Below are positions 2,708 through 31,347 of a stretch of 49,831 bases of DNA, in pieces. The DNA comes from Candidatus Acidiferrales bacterium. GTDB lineage: Bacteria; Verrucomicrobiota; Verrucomicrobiia; Limisphaerales; UBA11358. Numbering within the stretch: position 1 is the stretch's first letter; every line of letters starts with the position of its first letter. The notes below the pieces were generated by a model. The model searched no databases. It was not told the DNA's origin and saw nothing but the letters and a program-made list of their open reading frames with translations. The stretch spans positions 1 to 49,831 of the forward strand of contig DATHQS010000221.1 of NCBI GenBank assembly GCA_035482455.1, given 5' to 3'. The position numbers and the translations under genes are program-made.

Positions 2708-3073
2708 TCACTCCTCATGGGTGTGGGCTTTGGGGTTCTTTTCAAACTTTCGTTTTCGTTCAAGGGCTTTCTCAATTTCTTTTGGTGGCACGGCCGCCTC
2801 TTTGACGAGACCGTGCGAGAGCACGGCCGCCGTCCGGCCCTGAAAGAAATATAGCATCCGGTAATTTACGTGTTGCAGTCCGACCCGAAGCTCATAAATG
2901 CCATCACGCAAAAAATCGGCTTCCGGTCGTCTGAGTTCATGGCCCAATTCCTCAAGCCGCTCAATCCTGACAGTGCATTTGTCGAGCGCTTTGGTCGGCA
3001 ACGAATCAAGCCATTCGAGGATTGGCACCGAGCCGTCGTCTTCCTTGAAGAAGACCACTTTAGTCTTCGGCAT
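2708..3073 (-). CDS. Type II toxin, Gp49-like/RelE-HigB superfamily
   Basis: 121 aa. VVFFKEDDGSVPILEWLDSL...RIERLEELGHELRRPEADFLRDGIYELRV...YRMLYFF matches the phage Gp49-like (PF05973-type) pattern. Toxin-first order with an XRE partner. Confidence 0.8.
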   Translation of the reverse strand: MPKTKVVFFKEDDGSVPILEWLDSLPTKALDKCTVRIERLEELGHELRRPEADFLRDGIYELRVGLQHVNYRMLYFFQGRTAAVLSHGLVKEAAVPPKEIEKALERKRKFEKNPKAHTHEE

Positions 3074-3100
3074 CTTTGCCCTTTCTCATTGCCTCAAATA

Positions 3101-3114
3101 TCGCAATATTGCGA
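3101..3114. promoter_or_regulatory. Perfect 14-bp palindrome TCGCAATATTGCGA, candidate TA autoregulatory operator
   Basis: Seen 28 bp upstream of the toxin ATG (3073, minus strand). TA operons are typically autoregulated at such palindromes. Confidence 0.45.
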
Positions 3115-3204
3115 AGTTTGTCAAGTTCCACTTTGCCCGTTTTCTGTGCCTGCGTTTCGTGGCAAAAGGTTCCACCGCTGGCGGTTCTCGAAATCATGAA
3201 ATAT

Positions 3205-3319
3205 CGCCCTCATTTCTCCCCCAGCCGAACGGCTGCAGTTTTTGTGAAAATGCTCTATCGCTCGCAAGAGGGATTGAAAGAAAAGGCGGTTTCCCGCATT
3301 GTTGCCTCAACCACCATGA
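3205..3319 (+). repeat. 115-bp direct repeat, copy B (right flank of the TA cassette; includes the start codon of the AKR gene)
   Basis: About 97% identical to 2260..2374. Its last bases are ...ccaccATGa, where ATG 3316 is the AKR start. Confidence 0.9.
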
Positions 3320-4272
3320 CTACCATGAATAACGAACGCCACTCCAACGGCATGAACCGCCGTCAATTCTTGCAGGCCGGCGCGGGCTGTGCCGCCTCCG
3401 CCATAATCCTCGGCCTCGGCACCGCGCCGTCCTTTGCCGCGCCCACCACGGGCACCCCGAAAAGTTTGATTCCGTCCGTGACCCTCAATAACGGCCTGCC
3501 CATGCCGCGTCTGGGATTGGGCACCATGACGCTCAACGGCGACGTCGGCATCAGGTGCGTGGCCGATGCCATCGCCCTGGGCTATCGGCTGATTGATACC
3601 GCCATGATCTACGGCACCGAGCCGGCCGTCGGCGCCGGCATCAAACAAAGCGGCATCAAACGGGAAGAACTCTTCATCACCTCAAAACTGTGGAAGGCCG
3701 ACATGGGCTACGAACAGGCCAAGAAAGGATTTCAAACTTCCCTCGACAAGCTGGGCACGGATTATTTGGACCTCTACCTGATTCATCGGCCCGCTGGCGA
3801 TGTGAAAGGCTCCTGGAAAGCCATGGAGGAACTCTATCATGCGGGGAAAATCAAGGCCATCGGCGTCAGCAATTTCGCACCCGCGCAACTGGACGACTTG
3901 ATCGCGGCTGGCGCGATAAAACCGGCCATCCATCAGATCGAAACCCATGCGTACTTCCAGGAGGGCAAGTCACTGGAATCCTTGAAGCAACAGGGCGTGC
4001 AGATGCAGGCCTGGGCGCCTTTTGCGGAAGGCCGTCACGGGCTGTTCACCAATACCACGCTGGCCACCATCGGCAAGAAGTACAACAAGACGGTGGCGCA
4101 GGTGAGCCTGCGCTGGCATTTCCAAAGGGGGATCATCGCCATCCCCCGCTCCTCCCAGAAGGCGCATATCGCGGAAAACTTGGATATCTTTGATTTTACC
4201 CTCGAAGATTCCGACATGACCGCCATTTCCACGTTGGATCTGAACACCACCCAGTTTCCCGAGTGGAGTTAA
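3316..4272 (+). CDS. Aldo/keto reductase (DkgA-like) with a twin-arginine signal peptide
   Basis: MTTMNNERHSNGMNRRQFLQAGAGCAASAIILGLGTAPSFAAP, then AKR motifs LNNGLPMPRLGLGT, GYRLIDTAMIYG, LYLIHRP, IGVSNF, IPRSS. The 398-aa track ORF (from 3076) is an upstream extension through the repeat. Confidence 0.85.
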   Translation: MTTMNNERHSNGMNRRQFLQAGAGCAASAIILGLGTAPSFAAPTTGTPKSLIPSVTLNNGLPMPRLGLGTMTLNGDVGIRCVADAIALGYRLIDTAMIYGTEPAVGAGIKQSGIKREELFITSKLWKADMGYEQAKKGFQTSLDKLGTDYLDLYLIHRPAGDVKGSWKAMEELYHAGKIKAIGVSNFAPAQLDDLIAAGAIKPAIHQIETHAYFQEGKSLESLKQQGVQMQAWAPFAEGRHGLFTNTTLATIGKKYNKTVAQVSLRWHFQRGIIAIPRSSQKAHIAENLDIFDFTLEDSDMTAISTLDLNTTQFPEWS

Positions 4273-26081: not shown

Positions 26082-26813
26082 CTACGGCAGCTTCATGATC
26101 TCCGTCCGCAGCCGGCCGATGGTCTGCGACGCCAAGTGCTGGTCGATTGAACCATCGACGGGTTTCTCCAAATCCACGTGGCCGTCGGCAAAGGTGACAT
26201 TCGCCTTTTGGGCATGGCGGAAGTGGGTGTTGGGGAGCGAACTGAAATCAAAGTAATACCACTCTTCAAACATCGGGTTGCTGCTGGAGGCCGGCGCCTG
26301 GAAGGTGTTGACCTGCGCCGTGTCGGTGAAAATAGCGATGGTCGCCGGGCTGGCAATTTTGCTGGTATTCACGGGCTGGTTTCCCGGCCCGCCAAAAATG
26401 TACGAGTTGCAGCCGTAGCTGAAGATGGCGTTGGTGCCCTTGAGCTTGAACTGTGGCGAATTCCAAACGGGCGAGGCGCAGAGGCGCACGGCGCTGCCGC
26501 CGAGGTACGGATAGAGCACGCCGGTGGACAGGTCGAAAGGCCGGTGACCTTCGGGCTGGGTGTTGTCGATCCAGCCGAACCAGTAGAGCGTGCCGCCGTT
26601 CGTGTTGCCAAGATTGTAGCGGAAGGAGTTTCCGCCGTTTTCATCCCAATATAATTGCGTGGCCAGCCCGAGCTGGCGGATGTTGCTGGTGCAATCGGCG
26701 CGCTGGGCGGTGGCCTTGGCGCGCGTGAGCGCGGGCAGCAGCATCGCCGCCAGGATGGCGATGATGGCGATGACCACCAGCAATTCAATCAAGGTGAACG
26801 CGCGCCGTTTCAT
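26082..26813 (-). CDS. Prepilin-type N-terminal cleavage/methylation protein, DUF1559 / H-X9-DG family (pseudopilin-like)
   Basis: [29 protein letters not shown] (class III signal). C-terminal [13 protein letters not shown] is H-X9-DG. The 420-aa track ORF is an in-frame upstream extension through the inserted element. Confidence 0.85.
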
Positions 26814-27008
26814 GCCTGGTGCATCCTGATACTGCTCCAAAATTTCCGCCGCCCCAGGAGCGCGACTGTGCTGAAAGCCAGTCGCAGCAATGTGCAAAGA
26901 CCAAACCGCATACGCATGCGATGGCCGCGCTGTATTCCCACCTTGCTGCGGCTGGTCTCCGACACAGCCGCGCTCCGGGGGCAGGGTAAGGATGCGCCGT
27001 TTCATGCC
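26802..27008. mobile_element. MITE-like 192-bp insertion bounded by an identical 15-bp direct duplication (GCGCCGTTTCATGCC)
   Basis: 15-mers at 26802..26816 and 26994..27008 are identical and each contains the minus-strand ATGAAACGGCGC (MKRR). The internal body has 34-nt inverted arms (26857..26890 / 26943..26976, 27/34 matches). Each arm is itself a 7-bp hairpin (GCGACTG...CAGTCGC; GCGGCTG...CAGCCGC). Imperfect terminal inverted repeats atcctgatactgc / gcagggtaaggat. Confidence 0.55.
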
Positions 27009-27766
27009 GCGGCCTCCAGATGTTGTTTCATCTGCCGGAAACCGTGGATGAGCCGGTAGCCGGGCTGCAGGATGTCTTCGCCGGCGATCTCGTGCACACG
27101 GCCGGAACGCACGGCGGCCAGATTTTCCCAGCCCGGGCGCGCGGCAATCTCCGCCGTCCGCAGCGGTTTGCCGCACCACGAGGCAAAAATGATCTCCGGA
27201 CGGGTGGCGCAGACCTGGGCGGGCAACACCACGCGCTCCATGGCCGCGCGGCGGTTTCGCAATTCCGGAAAAACATCCTCGCCGCCGGCGCGCTCGATCA
27301 ATTCCCCGACCCAGCCGATGCCGGAGATGAGCGGGTCGTTCCATTCCTCGAAATAAACCCGGGGACGGACCGGCCGCGAGACCGGCGCCAACTGTTCACG
27401 AAATTCGGCCAGCAGCTGTTCCGCCGCCGGTTCGCAATCCACAATCCGCGCCAGCAAGGCGAGCGTGTTTTCAACCTCCGCCAGCGTGCGCTGGTTGGTG
27501 GCCAGCACGGACAATCCCCGCTGCATGAGTTCGGAGGCCAACTTGGCCTGCACATCGGAAAAAGTGATGACGAGGTCGGGGCGCAGTTGCACGATCTGCT
27601 CCAGGTTCGCGGAACTGAAGCCGCTGACGCGCGGTTTGGGCGGCGCTGCCGGTGGCGGATTGAAGAACGCCGTGACGCCCACCACGCGCTCCCACGCGCC
27701 AATGCGCCAGAGCCAGTCCGCCGCCTCGGCGGACAGACAGACGATGCGCTGGGGGATGCGGTTCAT
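27002..27766 (-). CDS. BtuF-like cobalamin/siderophore-type periplasmic-binding-fold protein (PBP type 2) with no recognisable signal peptide
   Basis: [26 protein letters not shown]...[16 protein letters not shown]...[27 protein letters not shown] matches the BtuF/Peripla_BP_2 pattern. ATG 27766 overlaps the upstream stop (ATGA). The N-terminus MNRIPQRIV has no hydrophobic leader. Confidence 0.75.
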
Positions 27767-28125
27767 TTGACGGCAAAGGGATTGGGCTCGGTTGCAAACG
27801 GACAATGGCGGCAGCCGCTGTCACAACAATAACCGCGCCGGTAGTGATACGCCGCGGTAAAAACCATCAGCCCGCCGTCGAAATAGAAATCGCCGGGCAG
27901 GACTTTTAACGCGGGCGTGCCGTTGGTCTTGGACCGGTGAAATTTCATCACGCAAGCGCGGCAGATGCAGGCCTGGTTCCGGTATTCCACCGGGATCTTG
28001 GCGATGAGTTCCTCGGGAATCTTCACCTTCGCGCACCAGCACGGCCCCTTGTAGGCGGCAAAACTGCTCAACTGGCAGTCGTTCAAACCGCCGCACAAGG
28101 GACACAGGCTGGGATTGAGGCTCAT
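27763..28125 (-). CDS. Cysteine-rich protein: CWC-type domain fused to a DUF5522-like CCxxGCRHCP domain
   Basis: From ATG 28125: MSLNPSLCPLCGGLNDCQ...GPCWCAKVKIP...ACICRACV (Cys_rich_CWC pattern), then YFDGGLMVFTAAYHYRRGYCCDSGCRHCPF (DUF5522 pattern). 13 Cys in 120 aa. ATGA overlaps with both neighbouring genes. Confidence 0.7.
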   Translation of the reverse strand: MSLNPSLCPLCGGLNDCQLSSFAAYKGPCWCAKVKIPEELIAKIPVEYRNQACICRACVMKFHRSKTNGTPALKVLPGDFYFDGGLMVFTAAYHYRRGYCCDSGCRHCPFATEPNPFAVK

Positions 28126-29732
28126 GGGCGGTCGGCGCGGATGCGGTAGAACGCCTTGTCCGGCGGGGTGGCCGGATCGGCGATGACGGTGGTGGTGCCG
28201 TTGCCGGCGGTGCTGGCGGCGGCCGACCAGCCTTGCAGGTCGGCGCTGCGTTCCAGCGTGTAAGTCCAGTTCGTCCGGCTCAGGAACTGCGCCTGCCACT
28301 GGCCGGCCTGGATGCCGCCGGCGAGATTTTGCACGGGGGGCGGCGGCAGGCTGACGACGAAATTATCCACGACGCCGTGGGCGAGGATGTCGTCACCAAA
28401 ACCATCGCCCGTGTAACTGCTGATGGAAACCGTATCCAAGCGGAAGTAATTGATGTTGGCCGGAAAGTAAAAGGGCAGCGCCGTGTAAAGCACGCCATTG
28501 GTCAGCACCTGGCCGGTGATGTTCGTTGAGCCGGCCGCGTGCGAAAGGATGATTTGATACGTGACGCCGGGGCTGAGCGTCAGGTTGTCATAGGCGAACG
28601 CCAGCCCGTCGAAGCCGGGCTGCGTGTCCTTCAGCGTGGCGTCGATGGAGTCCAGGTCGTAGTAGAGATTGGCGGGGAAATAATCGAACTCGAACAGGTT
28701 GGGTGAGTTGCCGCCGGCGCGGGCGAAGGCGGCGTTGGTGGCGTCGGCGAGATTGAAGAGGCCGATGGAGATTTCGTTGGCACCGCCAAACGTCGTCAGA
28801 TCGTTCAACGTAAAATCAAACGAGACGGTGAAGGCGTCGTCGCTGGTGAGCACCGTGCCGAGCGGGTGATACAGATAGCTGTTCACATCGGTGGAATCCC
28901 AGGTGACTTCCACGTTGTGGTTGGTGGGGTTCCAGTGGAAGAGGTTGGTATCGCCGAAATATTTCCAGCCGTTCAACGCCGGGTCGGTGTAAAAATCATC
29001 AGCAAACACCGGCAGCGCGCCGCTCACGCTGGAGAGGGCGTCCACTTCCGATTTGTTGCCGAGCACGTTGATGCGGACGTAACGCACGATGGGGATGTTC
29101 ACGGAATTTCCATTCGTATCCTGCGCCCAGGCGAGGTCGTAGCCGGTGCCGCCCGCCGAGCCGTTATACAGCGCGCGGATGCCGGCGAGGCCCAGGCCGC
29201 CAAAGCTGTTGGTCGTGAGCGCGGGGTTCACCGGCAGATGCGGATTGCCGAGGCCGTCGGTCGGGTAGATGTTGTCCACCGTGGGCGCGAGCGCGGGGTT
29301 GAGCGTGTACCAGTTCACGCCGTCGGCGCTGACTTCCACGCGGGTGGCATCGAGGTTGTTGCCGCCAATCGCGCCGGAGGTGATGCCGCCGCCGGAAAAA
29401 TTGCCGTTCGTGATGGCAAAGAAGGTGTTCCCAAAGATCAGGAAATCCAGACCGAACGGGTTGGACGGGTCGTTGATGATCGGCTGGTCGAAGCGCACGG
29501 TGAGCGAGCCGTTGGTGCCGATGGAGACGAGTTGCGACTTGGAGAACGGCGGGCCGAACGGGGTGATGGATGCGCCGGAAGCCGGGGCGCCGAGGACGGC
29601 GCCGGTGTTGGTGAAGCCGTTGGCGGCACCGGTGCCACGGTCAAAGTCGATCACGGCACTGGCGAATTGGGCATGGACGGAAACGACGGACAGGACGAAC
29701 AGGCTGGCGAGCGCCAGCGGACGGATTTTCAT
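28122..29732 (-). CDS. Secreted 536-aa protein of unknown function, first gene after the cobalamin riboswitch
   Basis: Signal MKIRPLALASLFVLSVVSVHAQ. N-terminal domain VIDFDRGTGAANGF...QLVSIGTNGSLTVRFDQPIINDPSNPFGLDFLIFGN...RVEVSADGVNWY. Central ConA/LamG-like region. C-terminal module ...YTLERSADLQGWSAA...AFYRIRADRP is shared with the fibro-slime protein at 31348..32325. Confidence 0.75.
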   Translation of the reverse strand: MKIRPLALASLFVLSVVSVHAQFASAVIDFDRGTGAANGFTNTGAVLGAPASGASITPFGPPFSKSQLVSIGTNGSLTVRFDQPIINDPSNPFGLDFLIFGNTFFAITNGNFSGGGITSGAIGGNNLDATRVEVSADGVNWYTLNPALAPTVDNIYPTDGLGNPHLPVNPALTTNSFGGLGLAGIRALYNGSAGGTGYDLAWAQDTNGNSVNIPIVRYVRINVLGNKSEVDALSSVSGALPVFADDFYTDPALNGWKYFGDTNLFHWNPTNHNVEVTWDSTDVNSYLYHPLGTVLTSDDAFTVSFDFTLNDLTTFGGANEISIGLFNLADATNAAFARAGGNSPNLFEFDYFPANLYYDLDSIDATLKDTQPGFDGLAFAYDNLTLSPGVTYQIILSHAAGSTNITGQVLTNGVLYTALPFYFPANINYFRLDTVSISSYTGDGFGDDILAHGVVDNFVVSLPPPPVQNLAGGIQAGQWQAQFLSRTNWTYTLERSADLQGWSAAASTAGNGTTTVIADPATPPDKAFYRIRADRP

Positions 29733-29819
29733 TTGGCTGATCTTTCATTTCGGTCCCGTGAAAAAAAATCACGGAACGGATTTACAGTTGGAAGACCAGC
29801 GCAGAAATGAATTGCTCAT

Positions 29820-29883
29820 CGTTCCCGTCCCCGTCCCCGTCCCCGTTCGAAAAATTTCGAGGACGAGGACGAGGACGAGGACG
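29820..29883 (-). repeat. Hexamer-repeat hairpin in the riboswitch leader: (CGUCCU)x4 - loop - (CGGGGA)x4 on the minus-strand RNA
   Basis: Plus strand: cgttcccgtccccgtccccgtccccg ttcgaaaaatttcga ggacgaggacgaggacgaggacg. On the minus-strand transcript GUCCUC pairs with GGGGAC using one G-U wobble per hexamer (18 contiguous bp plus about 4 more). On the plus-strand transcript these become C-A mismatches. Confidence 0.8.
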
Positions 29884-29889
29884 AAAAGC

Positions 29890-29928
29890 AAAAAAGCCTT
29901 CATCTCCGGCAAAACGGGGAATGAAGGC
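29890..29928 (-). terminator. Rho-independent terminator candidate (riboswitch expression platform)
   Basis: Minus strand GCCTTCAT-17 nt-ATGAAGGC followed by TTTTTT (A6 at 29890..29895 on the plus strand). Lies about 90 nt 3' of the aptamer and about 160 nt 5' of the ATG at 29732. Confidence 0.6.
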
Positions 29929-30019
29929 ATTCAACGAGTCCCGCCGAAAACAGATCGGCGGGCTGGCTCCATCCTTCTCTTTGCGGAGAAGTGCCCCGAA
30001 ATCGTTCGGGGCTGACGAG

Positions 30020-30161
30020 CGCAGTCAAACCGGTATCCTGACTTGGGCTTCAGACCTTTTCCCGCCTTCCCGTCCTTGCGGACAGTGGCATTGGGAATTG
30101 TAGCCGTTACAGTGGCGCAACCGTCCCGGATTCACACCGGGTTCCCAGACATTTGACTGCG
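30020..30161 (-). promoter_or_regulatory. Cobalamin (B12) riboswitch aptamer
   Basis: Minus strand: CGCAGTCAAA(P1)...GGGAACCCGGTGTGAATCCGGGACGG...GCGCCACTGTAACGG...AATGCCACTGTCC...GGGAAGGCGGG...AAGTCAGGATACCGG (B12 box, 30030..30044)...TTTGACTGCG(P1'). All hallmark blocks of the RF00174-type consensus are present in the right order. Confidence 0.9.
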
Positions 30162-30239
30162 ATATCGGCGGAATCGCTTCCGCCGTTTCAAAGAACAGGG
30201 ACAGTTCTACGCGGAATAAAAAATTTTCCAAGCAAAATA

Positions 30240-30846: not shown

Positions 30847-30914
30847 TTATACCAGACTGATTTCATCTGGTTCAAGATTGTCACAAAATCCGGGCTTCGT
30901 CCATTGCACAACTT

Positions 30915-31058
30915 CTAAGGCAACGCAATCAGTCCAACTGTATGGCGATGGGTGCAAAAACTGGGGCTGACCCCATCACGGGGATGATTCTTCGGGACGC
31001 GGCGACCGTACATCAGGCCGGTGGTGCCGTCGTCGCCGGTTTTGGTGGCGATGCTCAT
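30915..31058 (-). pseudogene. 5' remnant of a PduO-type ATP:cob(I)alamin adenosyltransferase gene
   Basis: Own translation (too short for the ORF track): MSIATKTGDDGTTGLMYGRRVPKNHPR|DGVSPSFCTHRHTVGLIALP*. The first 27 aa match the conserved PduO/MMAB N-terminus (xYTrtGDxGxTxLxxGxRvxKddxR). The expected VEAYG...DEL continuation is absent and the sequence turns A/T-rich near 30980. Confidence 0.65.
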
Positions 31059-31094
31059 TGTGTTTCACGGGAGGAAATTCAAGGCACGTGAAAA

Positions 31095-31126
31095 GTTGAA
31101 GAGTTAAAGCGTTGAAGGGTTGAAGC
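31095..31126 (+). repeat. Octamer tandem repeat GTTGAAGA/GTTAAAGC/GTTGAAGG/GTTGAAGC
   Basis: Read directly. Shares the GTTGAA/TTCAAC core with 33701..33750 and 38926..38958. Confidence 0.85.
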
Positions 31127-31347
31127 GGGACAATGCCACAGGCCAAAAGCGGCGCTGAAGCAGCCGCTTTCGACCGTGCTCGCCGCGTACGAATTTGCAA
31201 GACGCTGGGCAGGGTTAGGATGCCCCTCTGCCGCTCATGACTTCCCGGCGGCGGCAGTATGTTCCAAAATGGAACTAACTGAATCTTCCCCTAATTCGCC
31301 AGTTTTGAAGATGCTTGGTGACCGCCGTCGGTTGAGACGTCGAGATG

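Follow-up and report, generated by a model that had tools for sequence, protein, structure and literature searches.

A probable ISKra4-type miniature transposable element across the stop/start overlap of a BtuF-like gene and a pseudopilin gene in a Verrucomicrobiota cobalamin operon

We analyzed a stretch of 49,831 nucleotides (contig DATHQS010000221.1 of assembly GCA_035482455.1, positions 1 to 49,831), hereafter the window, from a genome deposited as Candidatus Acidiferrales bacterium and placed by its GTDB lineage among the Verrucomicrobiota. Its minus strand carries an operon headed by a cobalamin riboswitch (30011..30171; Rfam match, 86.5 bits), two genes of which concern us here. One codes for a Peripla_BP_2 or BtuF-like substrate-binding protein (27002..27766; 254 aa); the other, following it in the direction of transcription, codes for a prepilin-type pseudopilin with an N-terminal methylation motif and an H-X9-DG C-terminus (26082..26813; 243 aa when read from the downstream of two in-frame ATG codons). 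The pilin open reading frame (ORF) is intact, and its dN/dS of about 0.12 against the orthologs in L001 and L004, two relatives described below, is similar to that of the neighboring genes. The subject of this report is the DNA at the junction of these two genes, 192 extra bases that have the makings of a miniature inverted-repeat transposable element (MITE) accompanied by a duplication of its target.

The most conspicuous mark of the junction is the 15-mer GCGCCGTTTCATGCC, which stands in identical form at 26802–26816 and 26994–27008 and occurs nowhere else in the 49.8-kb window. The copies have a period of 192 nt, and an exact 15-nt repeat at that distance is far beyond chance. On the minus strand both read GGC ATG AAA CGG CGC. 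In the upstream copy the BtuF-like gene comes to its final codon and its TGA (27004–27002), which an ATG at 27005–27003 overlaps, while the downstream copy supplies the ATG (26813–26811) that starts the pseudopilin, whose N-terminus is conserved in the orthologs. We thus confirmed what the initial annotation of this DNA had reported, namely an identical 15-mer at both places and a copied start codon, the upstream version of which overlaps the BtuF-like stop and the downstream version of which opens the prepilin leader. The DNA between the copies, described there as having imperfect terminal inverted repeats and inverted arms with perfect hairpins, is a long imperfect palindrome. Its arms (26844–26901 and 26932–26989) span 58 nt with 74% complementarity, its outer arms (26818–26838 and 26978–26998) are 76% complementary, and a perfect 7-bp stem sits in each arm (26862–68/26879–85 and 26948–54/26965–71). 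The insert is also, as had been stated, exactly 192 nt long and can be read in the pilin frame without meeting a stop. This openness is unremarkable, given that the G+C content alone leaves three of the six frames open.

Comparison with orthologous loci speaks in favor of an insertion. By tracing the closest homologs of the BtuF-like protein (84–88% identity) to their own contigs, we found three relatives, L001 (GCA_031290985.1), L004 (JGI 3300019891) and L005 (GCA_035943555.1), with the same gene order as the window: secreted protein(s), a CWC/DUF5522 protein, the BtuF-like protein, the N_methyl pseudopilin, a convergent TolC-like gene and a TetR gene. As in the window, a cobalamin riboswitch precedes the operon in all three. 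In each of them the BtuF-like stop and the pilin ATG share a 4-nt overlap (ATGA), with zero trace of the 192 nt, and the empty site GGCATGA(A/G)(A/G) is present once; the junction of L001, for example, reads ...GAGGCCGCGGCATGAGACGGCGCGCTTTT... Three short Logan contigs likewise show the ATGA junction without the insert. These empty sites uphold the proposal that a non-autonomous element landed on the stop/start overlap and that its removal restores the ancestral operon. The reverse history, in which an old, conserved and structured leader or regulatory RNA between the genes was lost in the relatives, would fit the very stable predicted fold and the open frame, but it is effectively refuted by three independent relatives that have the 4-nt overlap and no remnant of the element. 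Given also the presence of transposon ends and a duplication, and the lack of any Rfam family match, we assign this history practically no probability.

The insertion allele is not an assembly artifact. A false or chimeric joint might be suspected at repeated sequence, and each flank does border on sequence of high copy number, namely the pilin N-terminal motif at a depth of >10,000 and the hairpin module of the insert at ~1,000. However, both insert junctions are crossed by exact Logan contigs in run X1, a soil metagenome; an exact 181-nt contig (26928–27108) comes from X2, a metatranscriptome of a different sample; and the same allele recurs in a separate JGI assembly, where contig 3300050821 (13,399 bp) codes for an identical BtuF-like protein followed by a called N_methyl gene (2975–3898) of 307 aa, that is, 243 + 64. 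No contig joints skipping the insert were seen in runs X1, X2, X3 and X5, the contigs of which drop rare variants. As the duplication and the terminal repeats are those expected from a real insertion, an artifact is next to inconceivable.

The ends of the insert link it to an extensive family. A metagenome scan with the terminal repeat as the search pattern recovered at least 120 stretches, and a scan of species-representative genomes with the hairpin pattern recovered at least 119, mostly from metagenome-assembled genomes (MAGs) labelled as Verrucomicrobiota. The family has a terminal inverted repeat of 23 bp, with the consensus GGGCGCATCYNNRCACTGCCCCC and the ending ...GCGCCC. Full-length relatives with the layout of the window copy are L022, L105 and L094, each of 183 bp, and L100, of 172 bp; all four are bounded by GGGCGCATC...CACTGCCCCC inverted repeats, and 9-bp direct repeats lie at the flanks of L022, L100 and L023. 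Among the matches listed, 61 pairs of repeats are of MITE size (105–353 bp), with a 9/9 duplication in 28 and an 8/9 duplication in 10, whereas control 9-mers taken 40 nt further out reach a maximum of 5/9. Aligned to the four full-length relatives, the window copy occupies 183 bp (26817..26999) and consists of a terminal repeat, a 17-nt linker, a first hairpin, a variable center, a second hairpin and another terminal repeat. Its left repeat, TGGTGCATCCTGATACTGCTCCA, lies at 26817..26839 on the plus strand and its right repeat, CGGCGCATCCTTACCCTGCCCCC, at 26977..26999 on the minus strand; the whole reads T-GGTGCATCC...GGATGCGCC-G, with repeat matches at 26818(+) and 26998(−). Together with a 9-bp duplication this comes to 183 + 9 = 192, the same total as in L022.

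The same 23-bp repeats also bound a candidate autonomous partner. At least six elements of 1376–1406 bp (L224, L189, L173, L227, L209 and L201) carry them along with a single 408-aa ORF, which matches the NCBIfam model NF033572 (ISKra4 family transposase) over nearly its full length with E-values from 1.5e-53 to 6.9e-49; the ISLre2, ISH6 and UPF0236 models match it more weakly. Against the repeats of these 1.4-kb insertion sequences (IS), the right end of the window element agrees at 21/23 positions (as compared with L227) and the left end at 18/23. A fragment of the partner is also found in L015, a Verrucomicrobia subdivision 3 MAG, and the few IS fragments in the source metagenome, with ~85% identity, are uninformative. 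Most family members listed carry other interiors, and the MITEs and the IS have only their 23–24-bp ends in common; we rejected an origin of the MITE as a deletion derivative of the IS, the match being confined to those ends. MITEs have been characterized as ~70–300 bp in size (PMC3733652), and the window element, at 183 bp and without coding capacity for a transposase, is within that range. We therefore consider it highly probable that the 192 extra bases are a 183-bp MITE (26817–26999) plus a 9-bp duplication, from a large Verrucomicrobiota family that shares its ends with an ISKra4-like, Mutator-type DDE IS.

This assignment can be set against the published ISKra4 group (p-MULT 4 of the prokaryotic Mutator-like DDE transposases), which features 18–39-bp inverted repeats ending in C and 8–9-bp direct repeats, and some members of which choose sites ahead of sigma-A promoters (Guerillot et al. 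2014, PMC3942029). The family described here is alike in the 1.4-kb length of its candidate partner, whose one ORF matches the ISKra4 model, in its 23-bp repeat ending in ...C, in its 9-bp duplications, and in the constant spacing between its insertion sites and the sigma-70-type −35 boxes downstream of them. It is unlike the group in several respects. First, the partner transposase falls below the curated cut-off of the model, pointing to a diverged lineage. Second, Verrucomicrobia are not among the host phyla of the 2014 survey (PMC3942029). Third, the distance from the repeat tip to the TTG of the −35 box is 27 nt (18 nt without the duplication), as opposed to the published 13–17 bp (PMC3942029). 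Fourth, the MITE shares just the 23-bp ends with the IS, and its cargo hairpins are unrelated.

The placement of the element's right boundary depends on the family. The 15-mers are identical at all 15 positions, and this copy alone cannot place the boundary within the repeat; taken by itself, it could be a 177-bp element of unknown type (26817–26993) with a genuine 15-bp target duplication, which is how the initial annotation had delimited it. However, GCGCC(G) at 26994–26999 corresponds in the alignment to the conserved repeat tip of the family, and the counterpart of this tip at the other end (GGTGC, 26818–22) sits inside the duplication, because of which the GCGCCG tip belongs to the element; a 177-bp element would be one tip short. 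Moreover, family duplications are of 9 bp (9/9 or 8/9) in 38 of the 61 pairs listed, and a 15-bp repeat occurs in none. A 177-bp element is accordingly a very unlikely solution. By the family rule, the true target duplication is most likely the 9-bp TTTCATGCC, and the remaining six identical bases would be an element tip that matches the target. The pilin-side copy of the 9-mer (26808..26816; GGCATGAAA on the minus strand) supplies the pseudopilin ATG at 26813–26811, and the BtuF-side copy (27000..27008) holds the BtuF-like TGA at 27004–27002 together with the second in-frame ATG at 27005–27003. Next to the former lies the native target flank GCGCCG (26802..26807), which encodes RR in the pilin and equals the far tip of the element (26994–26999); the visible repeat would have been stretched to 15 nt because these next six target bases (CGGCGC on the coding strand) equal the tip. 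What remains of the earlier 15-bp duplication is hence the identity over 15 nt but not the length of the target duplication, and the 177-bp body gives way to one of 183 bp, since the 23-bp terminal repeat takes in GCGCC(G).

An ordered course of insertion can be proposed on this basis. An ISKra4-like transposase, supplied in trans, would have cut the target with a 9-bp stagger, a value taken from the family. The cut would have fallen across GGCATGAAA, where the BtuF-like TGA overlapped the pseudopilin ATG, and repair would have copied the 9-mer, thereby preserving a stop for the BtuF-like gene and a start for the pilin gene. The interior, a pair of inverted REP-like hairpins, is interchangeable cargo rather than IS-derived DNA.

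The choice of target by the family shows a pattern in 190–195 non-redundant outward flanks of terminal repeats among the matches listed. TTG occurs at offset 28–30 in 44/190 of these flanks (45/195 in a first count), compared to a mean of 4.8 elsewhere; with a 17-nt spacer, a −10 box would have its second base at offset 52, where A is enriched; and 26 of the 44 TTG flanks match the −35 hexamer at 4/6 positions or better. Therefore, the family homes 27 nt upstream of −35-like boxes. On the pilin side of the window copy, TTGAAT is found at offset 29–34 and CATCAT at 51–56, both within the pilin coding sequence; the BtuF-side flank has nothing comparable to promoter boxes. There is a slim chance that the DNA of the pilin N-terminus, TTCACCTTGATTGAATTGCTGGTGGTCATCGCCATCATC, by its resemblance to a sigma-70 promoter (TTGAAT-N16-CATCAT), acts as a mimic that attracts the transposase to a point ~27–28 nt upstream, onto the start codon. 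As part of this scenario, a length of 192 nt, which is a multiple of three and stop-free here, could let such landings persist as element-encoded prepilin leaders. If promoter mimicry were true, start-codon MITEs would amount to a recurrent re-wiring of pseudopilin expression, there being many H-X9-DG genes per genome of this kind. The chance of mimicry stays slim because the window copy fits the family geometry only roughly and is alone among the copies listed in lying at a pilin start. We also rejected a general targeting of pilin starts: an FTLIELL-type motif lies within 400 nt of 0/124 hairpin copies listed and is encoded in 0/190 terminal-repeat flanks listed.

Several observations weigh against the assignment of the insert to an ISKra4-type MITE with a 9-bp duplication. 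The partner transposase scores 167–182 bits, below the NCBI curated cut-off of 205. Five of the IS copies lie in contigs that include both of their flanks (L224, L173, L227, L209 and L201), and none of the five has a clean duplication, possibly because metagenome assembly produced chimeras at this multi-copy 1.4-kb IS or because its copies recombined. Neither a close second copy in the window, nor a second copy with at least 80% identity over 26820–26853 in the probable source metagenome (depth 5), nor any similarity to a transposase in the element or elsewhere in the window was found. The window copy itself departs from the family in several ways: its left repeat reaches the above-mentioned 18/23 only; its TTG begins at offset 29 and so misses the family mode by one base; and its outermost bases are T...G as opposed to G...C in the family, C being the conserved last base of p-MULT elements. 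The outermost base, however, varies also in L161, L139 and L184, all of which have perfect 9-bp duplications. Finally, the six extra identical bases stand unexplained, with no more than four seen in 44 flanks of the clean family copies listed. The hexamer match between tip and target has a chance of ~1e-3 (the frequency of the hexamer in the window is 0.0015 per position) and looks like a coincidence, as we found no mechanistic reason for it; a preference for tip-like targets, tried as the cause, gets no support from the 22 clean copies listed.

The interior of the element comprises two hairpin modules in inverted orientation. Module 1 (26857..26889, plus strand), GGAGCGCGACTG-T-GCT-GAA-AGC-CAGTCGCAGCA, folds into a stem of 7 bp topped, past a bulged T, by an upper stem of 3 bp with a triloop. 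Module 2 (26944..26976, minus strand), GGAGCGCGGCTG-T-GTC-GGA-GAC-CAGCCGCAGCA, displays a compensatory G-C to A-T change in its stem relative to module 1. In soil metagenome X1, the right-arm module attains a depth of ~900–1400 as against ~5–8 for the single-copy flanks. Such a core suggests another possible origin, namely a REPIN, an inverted doublet of REP hairpins (REP, repetitive extragenic palindromic) that a RAYT (an HUH tyrosine transposase), and not a DDE enzyme, copies in single-stranded form. In line with this, the structure of the two hairpins is conserved, the varying stem position being G-C in 92, A-T in 22 and non-pairing in 8 of the copies listed, and the same hairpin pair is present without these terminal repeats in many Verrucomicrobiota genomes, such as L080, L060, L081 and L025. 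However, IS200/IS605-type HUH enzymes make no target duplication, whereas the window copy is bounded by ISKra4-type 23-bp repeats and has one. Most terminal-repeat family members listed also have other interiors, and the two REP superfamilies described so far are defined by GTAG or CGTC tags (PMC3733652), neither of which is present within the hairpin modules or adjacent to them. A REPIN thus appears very improbable as an account of the whole insert. What the interior doublet has in common with REPIN/RAYT systems, reportedly described by Bertels and Rainey in 2011 and by Nunvar et al. in 2010, is the inverted pair of REP-like hairpins, the covarying stems, and a widespread and vertically persistent occurrence in the phylum; what separates the two is the missing GTAG/CGTC tag along with the DDE-type repeats and the 9-bp duplication of the window copy.

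The hairpin pair also turns up in other settings. In L060, L102, L080, L034 and L081, this asymmetric pair (with the loops GCTGAAAGC and GTCGRAGAC) resides inside elements with different outer ends, for example an inverted GACAAAATTCTTC; the pair behaves as a cassette common to several repeat families. Some hairpin-bearing contigs (L009, L018, L032, L073, L074 and L076) bear the title 'uncultured Bifidobacterium/Bifidobacteriaceae', and others are titled Angelobacter, Sulfotelmatobacter or Limnocylindria; as the hairpin repeat is otherwise nearly confined, among the matches listed, to Verrucomicrobiota MAGs, these non-Verrucomicrobiota-titled contigs are probably from mislabelled or contaminated bins.

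Three further loci concern the terminal-repeat family. Within the window, the intergenic region 30847–31347 contains a possible relic (~31130–31226): a solo 21-mer, TGGGCAGGGTTAGGATGCCCC, matches the right end of the element at 18/21 positions and shares with it the unusual CAGGGT[A/T]AGGATGC variant, and ahead of it lie a hairpin (31141–31175) and ~100 nt that weakly resemble the element's right half. This may be a decayed half-copy of the same sub-lineage. In L237 (1235–2262), three terminal-repeat MITEs are clustered within 1 kb, two of them with 9/9 or 8/9 duplications, constituting a local insertion hot spot. In L094 (1003–1344), the flank of the 183-bp element repeats the element's own tip (GGGCGCAT|GGGCGCATC), and a second palindromic repeat-like pair lies 140 nt away, an arrangement that may represent a nested or tandem insertion.

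The predicted consequences of the insertion for the operon center on its RNA structure and on the choice of the start codon. The RNA of the element has a predicted fold of −115.3 kcal/mol (z = −5.9), by which the operon mRNA would now carry a hairpin of about −115 kcal/mol between the BtuF-like and pilin genes. A GGAGG, found ahead of the pilin start in all orthologs, is retained 7 nt upstream of the upstream ATG, and the ATGA coupling is kept; because of these two features the upstream ATG should still be used. The downstream ATG has just a poorly spaced AGGA, 10 nt upstream, and is located in the base of the long stem. Judging from these signals, ribosomes that end the BtuF-like gene could restart at the upstream ATG and read through the element, along the alternative reading frame at 26082..27005 (minus strand). 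The product would be a 307-aa prepilin of 64 element-encoded residues plus the pilin, with a 68-residue leader. A leader of this length is unusual, though not obviously incompatible with processing, because, relative to the prepilin peptidase site, it remains on the side of the cytoplasm.

These considerations bear on two statements of the initial annotation that our analysis neither supports nor refutes. One is that the insertion uncouples the pilin gene from the B12 operon: GGAGG and ATGA are both still in place at the upstream ATG, and the in-frame 307-aa reading is the one called on JGI 3300050821. The other is that a 64-aa extension would be incompatible with class III signal processing: the extension lies on the cytoplasmic side of the cleavage site. 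Contigs of this organism from RNA libraries extend over the riboswitch with its leader, over the CWC/BtuF junction, and from the BtuF-like 3′ end into the element; over the pilin body they are too thin to be informative. No sigma-70-like promoter was found within the element. Two candidate control elements were rejected: the sole potential intrinsic terminator in the element is a weak apex hairpin (26922–26905) within shuffle expectation, and the B12-box-like stretches GGAGACCAGCC and GGTGGGAATAC do not betray a cobalamin riboswitch within the insert, the sole Rfam cobalamin aptamer being that at 30011–30171 with nothing credible in 26600–27200.

Small mobile elements in comparable positions are known from other bacteria. 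Correia/NEMIS elements of Neisseria, ERIC/IRU elements of enterobacteria and RUP elements of Streptococcus pneumoniae are MITEs that lie inside operons and are co-transcribed. The properties used for this comparison come partly from PMC3733652. The window element shares their small size, palindromic structure, terminal repeats and target duplication, and is situated between genes of one operon, where its predicted long RNA hairpin could alter mRNA stability or translation. It differs from them in its transposase family and duplication length (Correia elements make TA), and no sign of RNase III processing, of promoters or of IHF (integration host factor) sites was seen in this analysis. A second parallel is offered by the Rickettsia palindromic elements (RPE), whose insertions into protein-coding genes preserve the reading frame. 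As in RPE, a gene of still functional appearance gains from a palindromic repeat a peptide segment that is in frame and free of stops. In contrast to RPE, to which it has no sequence relationship, the window element stands ahead of the native start, making the extension optional and not internal, and its 64-aa peptide has no NCBIfam match at E≤1.

The pseudopilin gene itself merits some remarks. A prepilin-like gene with the H-X9-DG signature is the conserved last gene of the cobalamin-riboswitch operon in four Verrucomicrobiae genomes (window 26082–30171, L001, L004 and L005). It is translationally coupled (ATGA) to a BtuF-like protein that lacks an obvious signal peptide. The DNA coding for the prepilin N-terminal helix (26735–26800) has a summed contig depth of >10,000 at 80% identity or better in soil metagenomes, indicating that this gene family is abundant there.

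In conclusion, the window element is best viewed as a MITE of an ISKra4-type (Mutator-like) IS, which is an already known and ordinary kind of mobile DNA; it brings no new mechanism and leaves the understanding of B12 uptake and of pseudopilins unchanged. It does carry a warning for annotation: where the upstream ATG is called, public protein sets hold a 307-aa 'pilin', the first 64 residues of which are a translated MITE. As a natural insertion it is well documented, with an empty site, a duplication, terminal repeats and an autonomous partner, and it illustrates how a 9-bp staggered cut across an overlapping stop and start (ATGA) would leave both genes formally intact. Beyond this locus, it leads to the description of a family of very abundant ISKra4-type MITEs in soil and freshwater Verrucomicrobiota, which lie upstream of −35 boxes and bear interchangeable hairpin cassettes.

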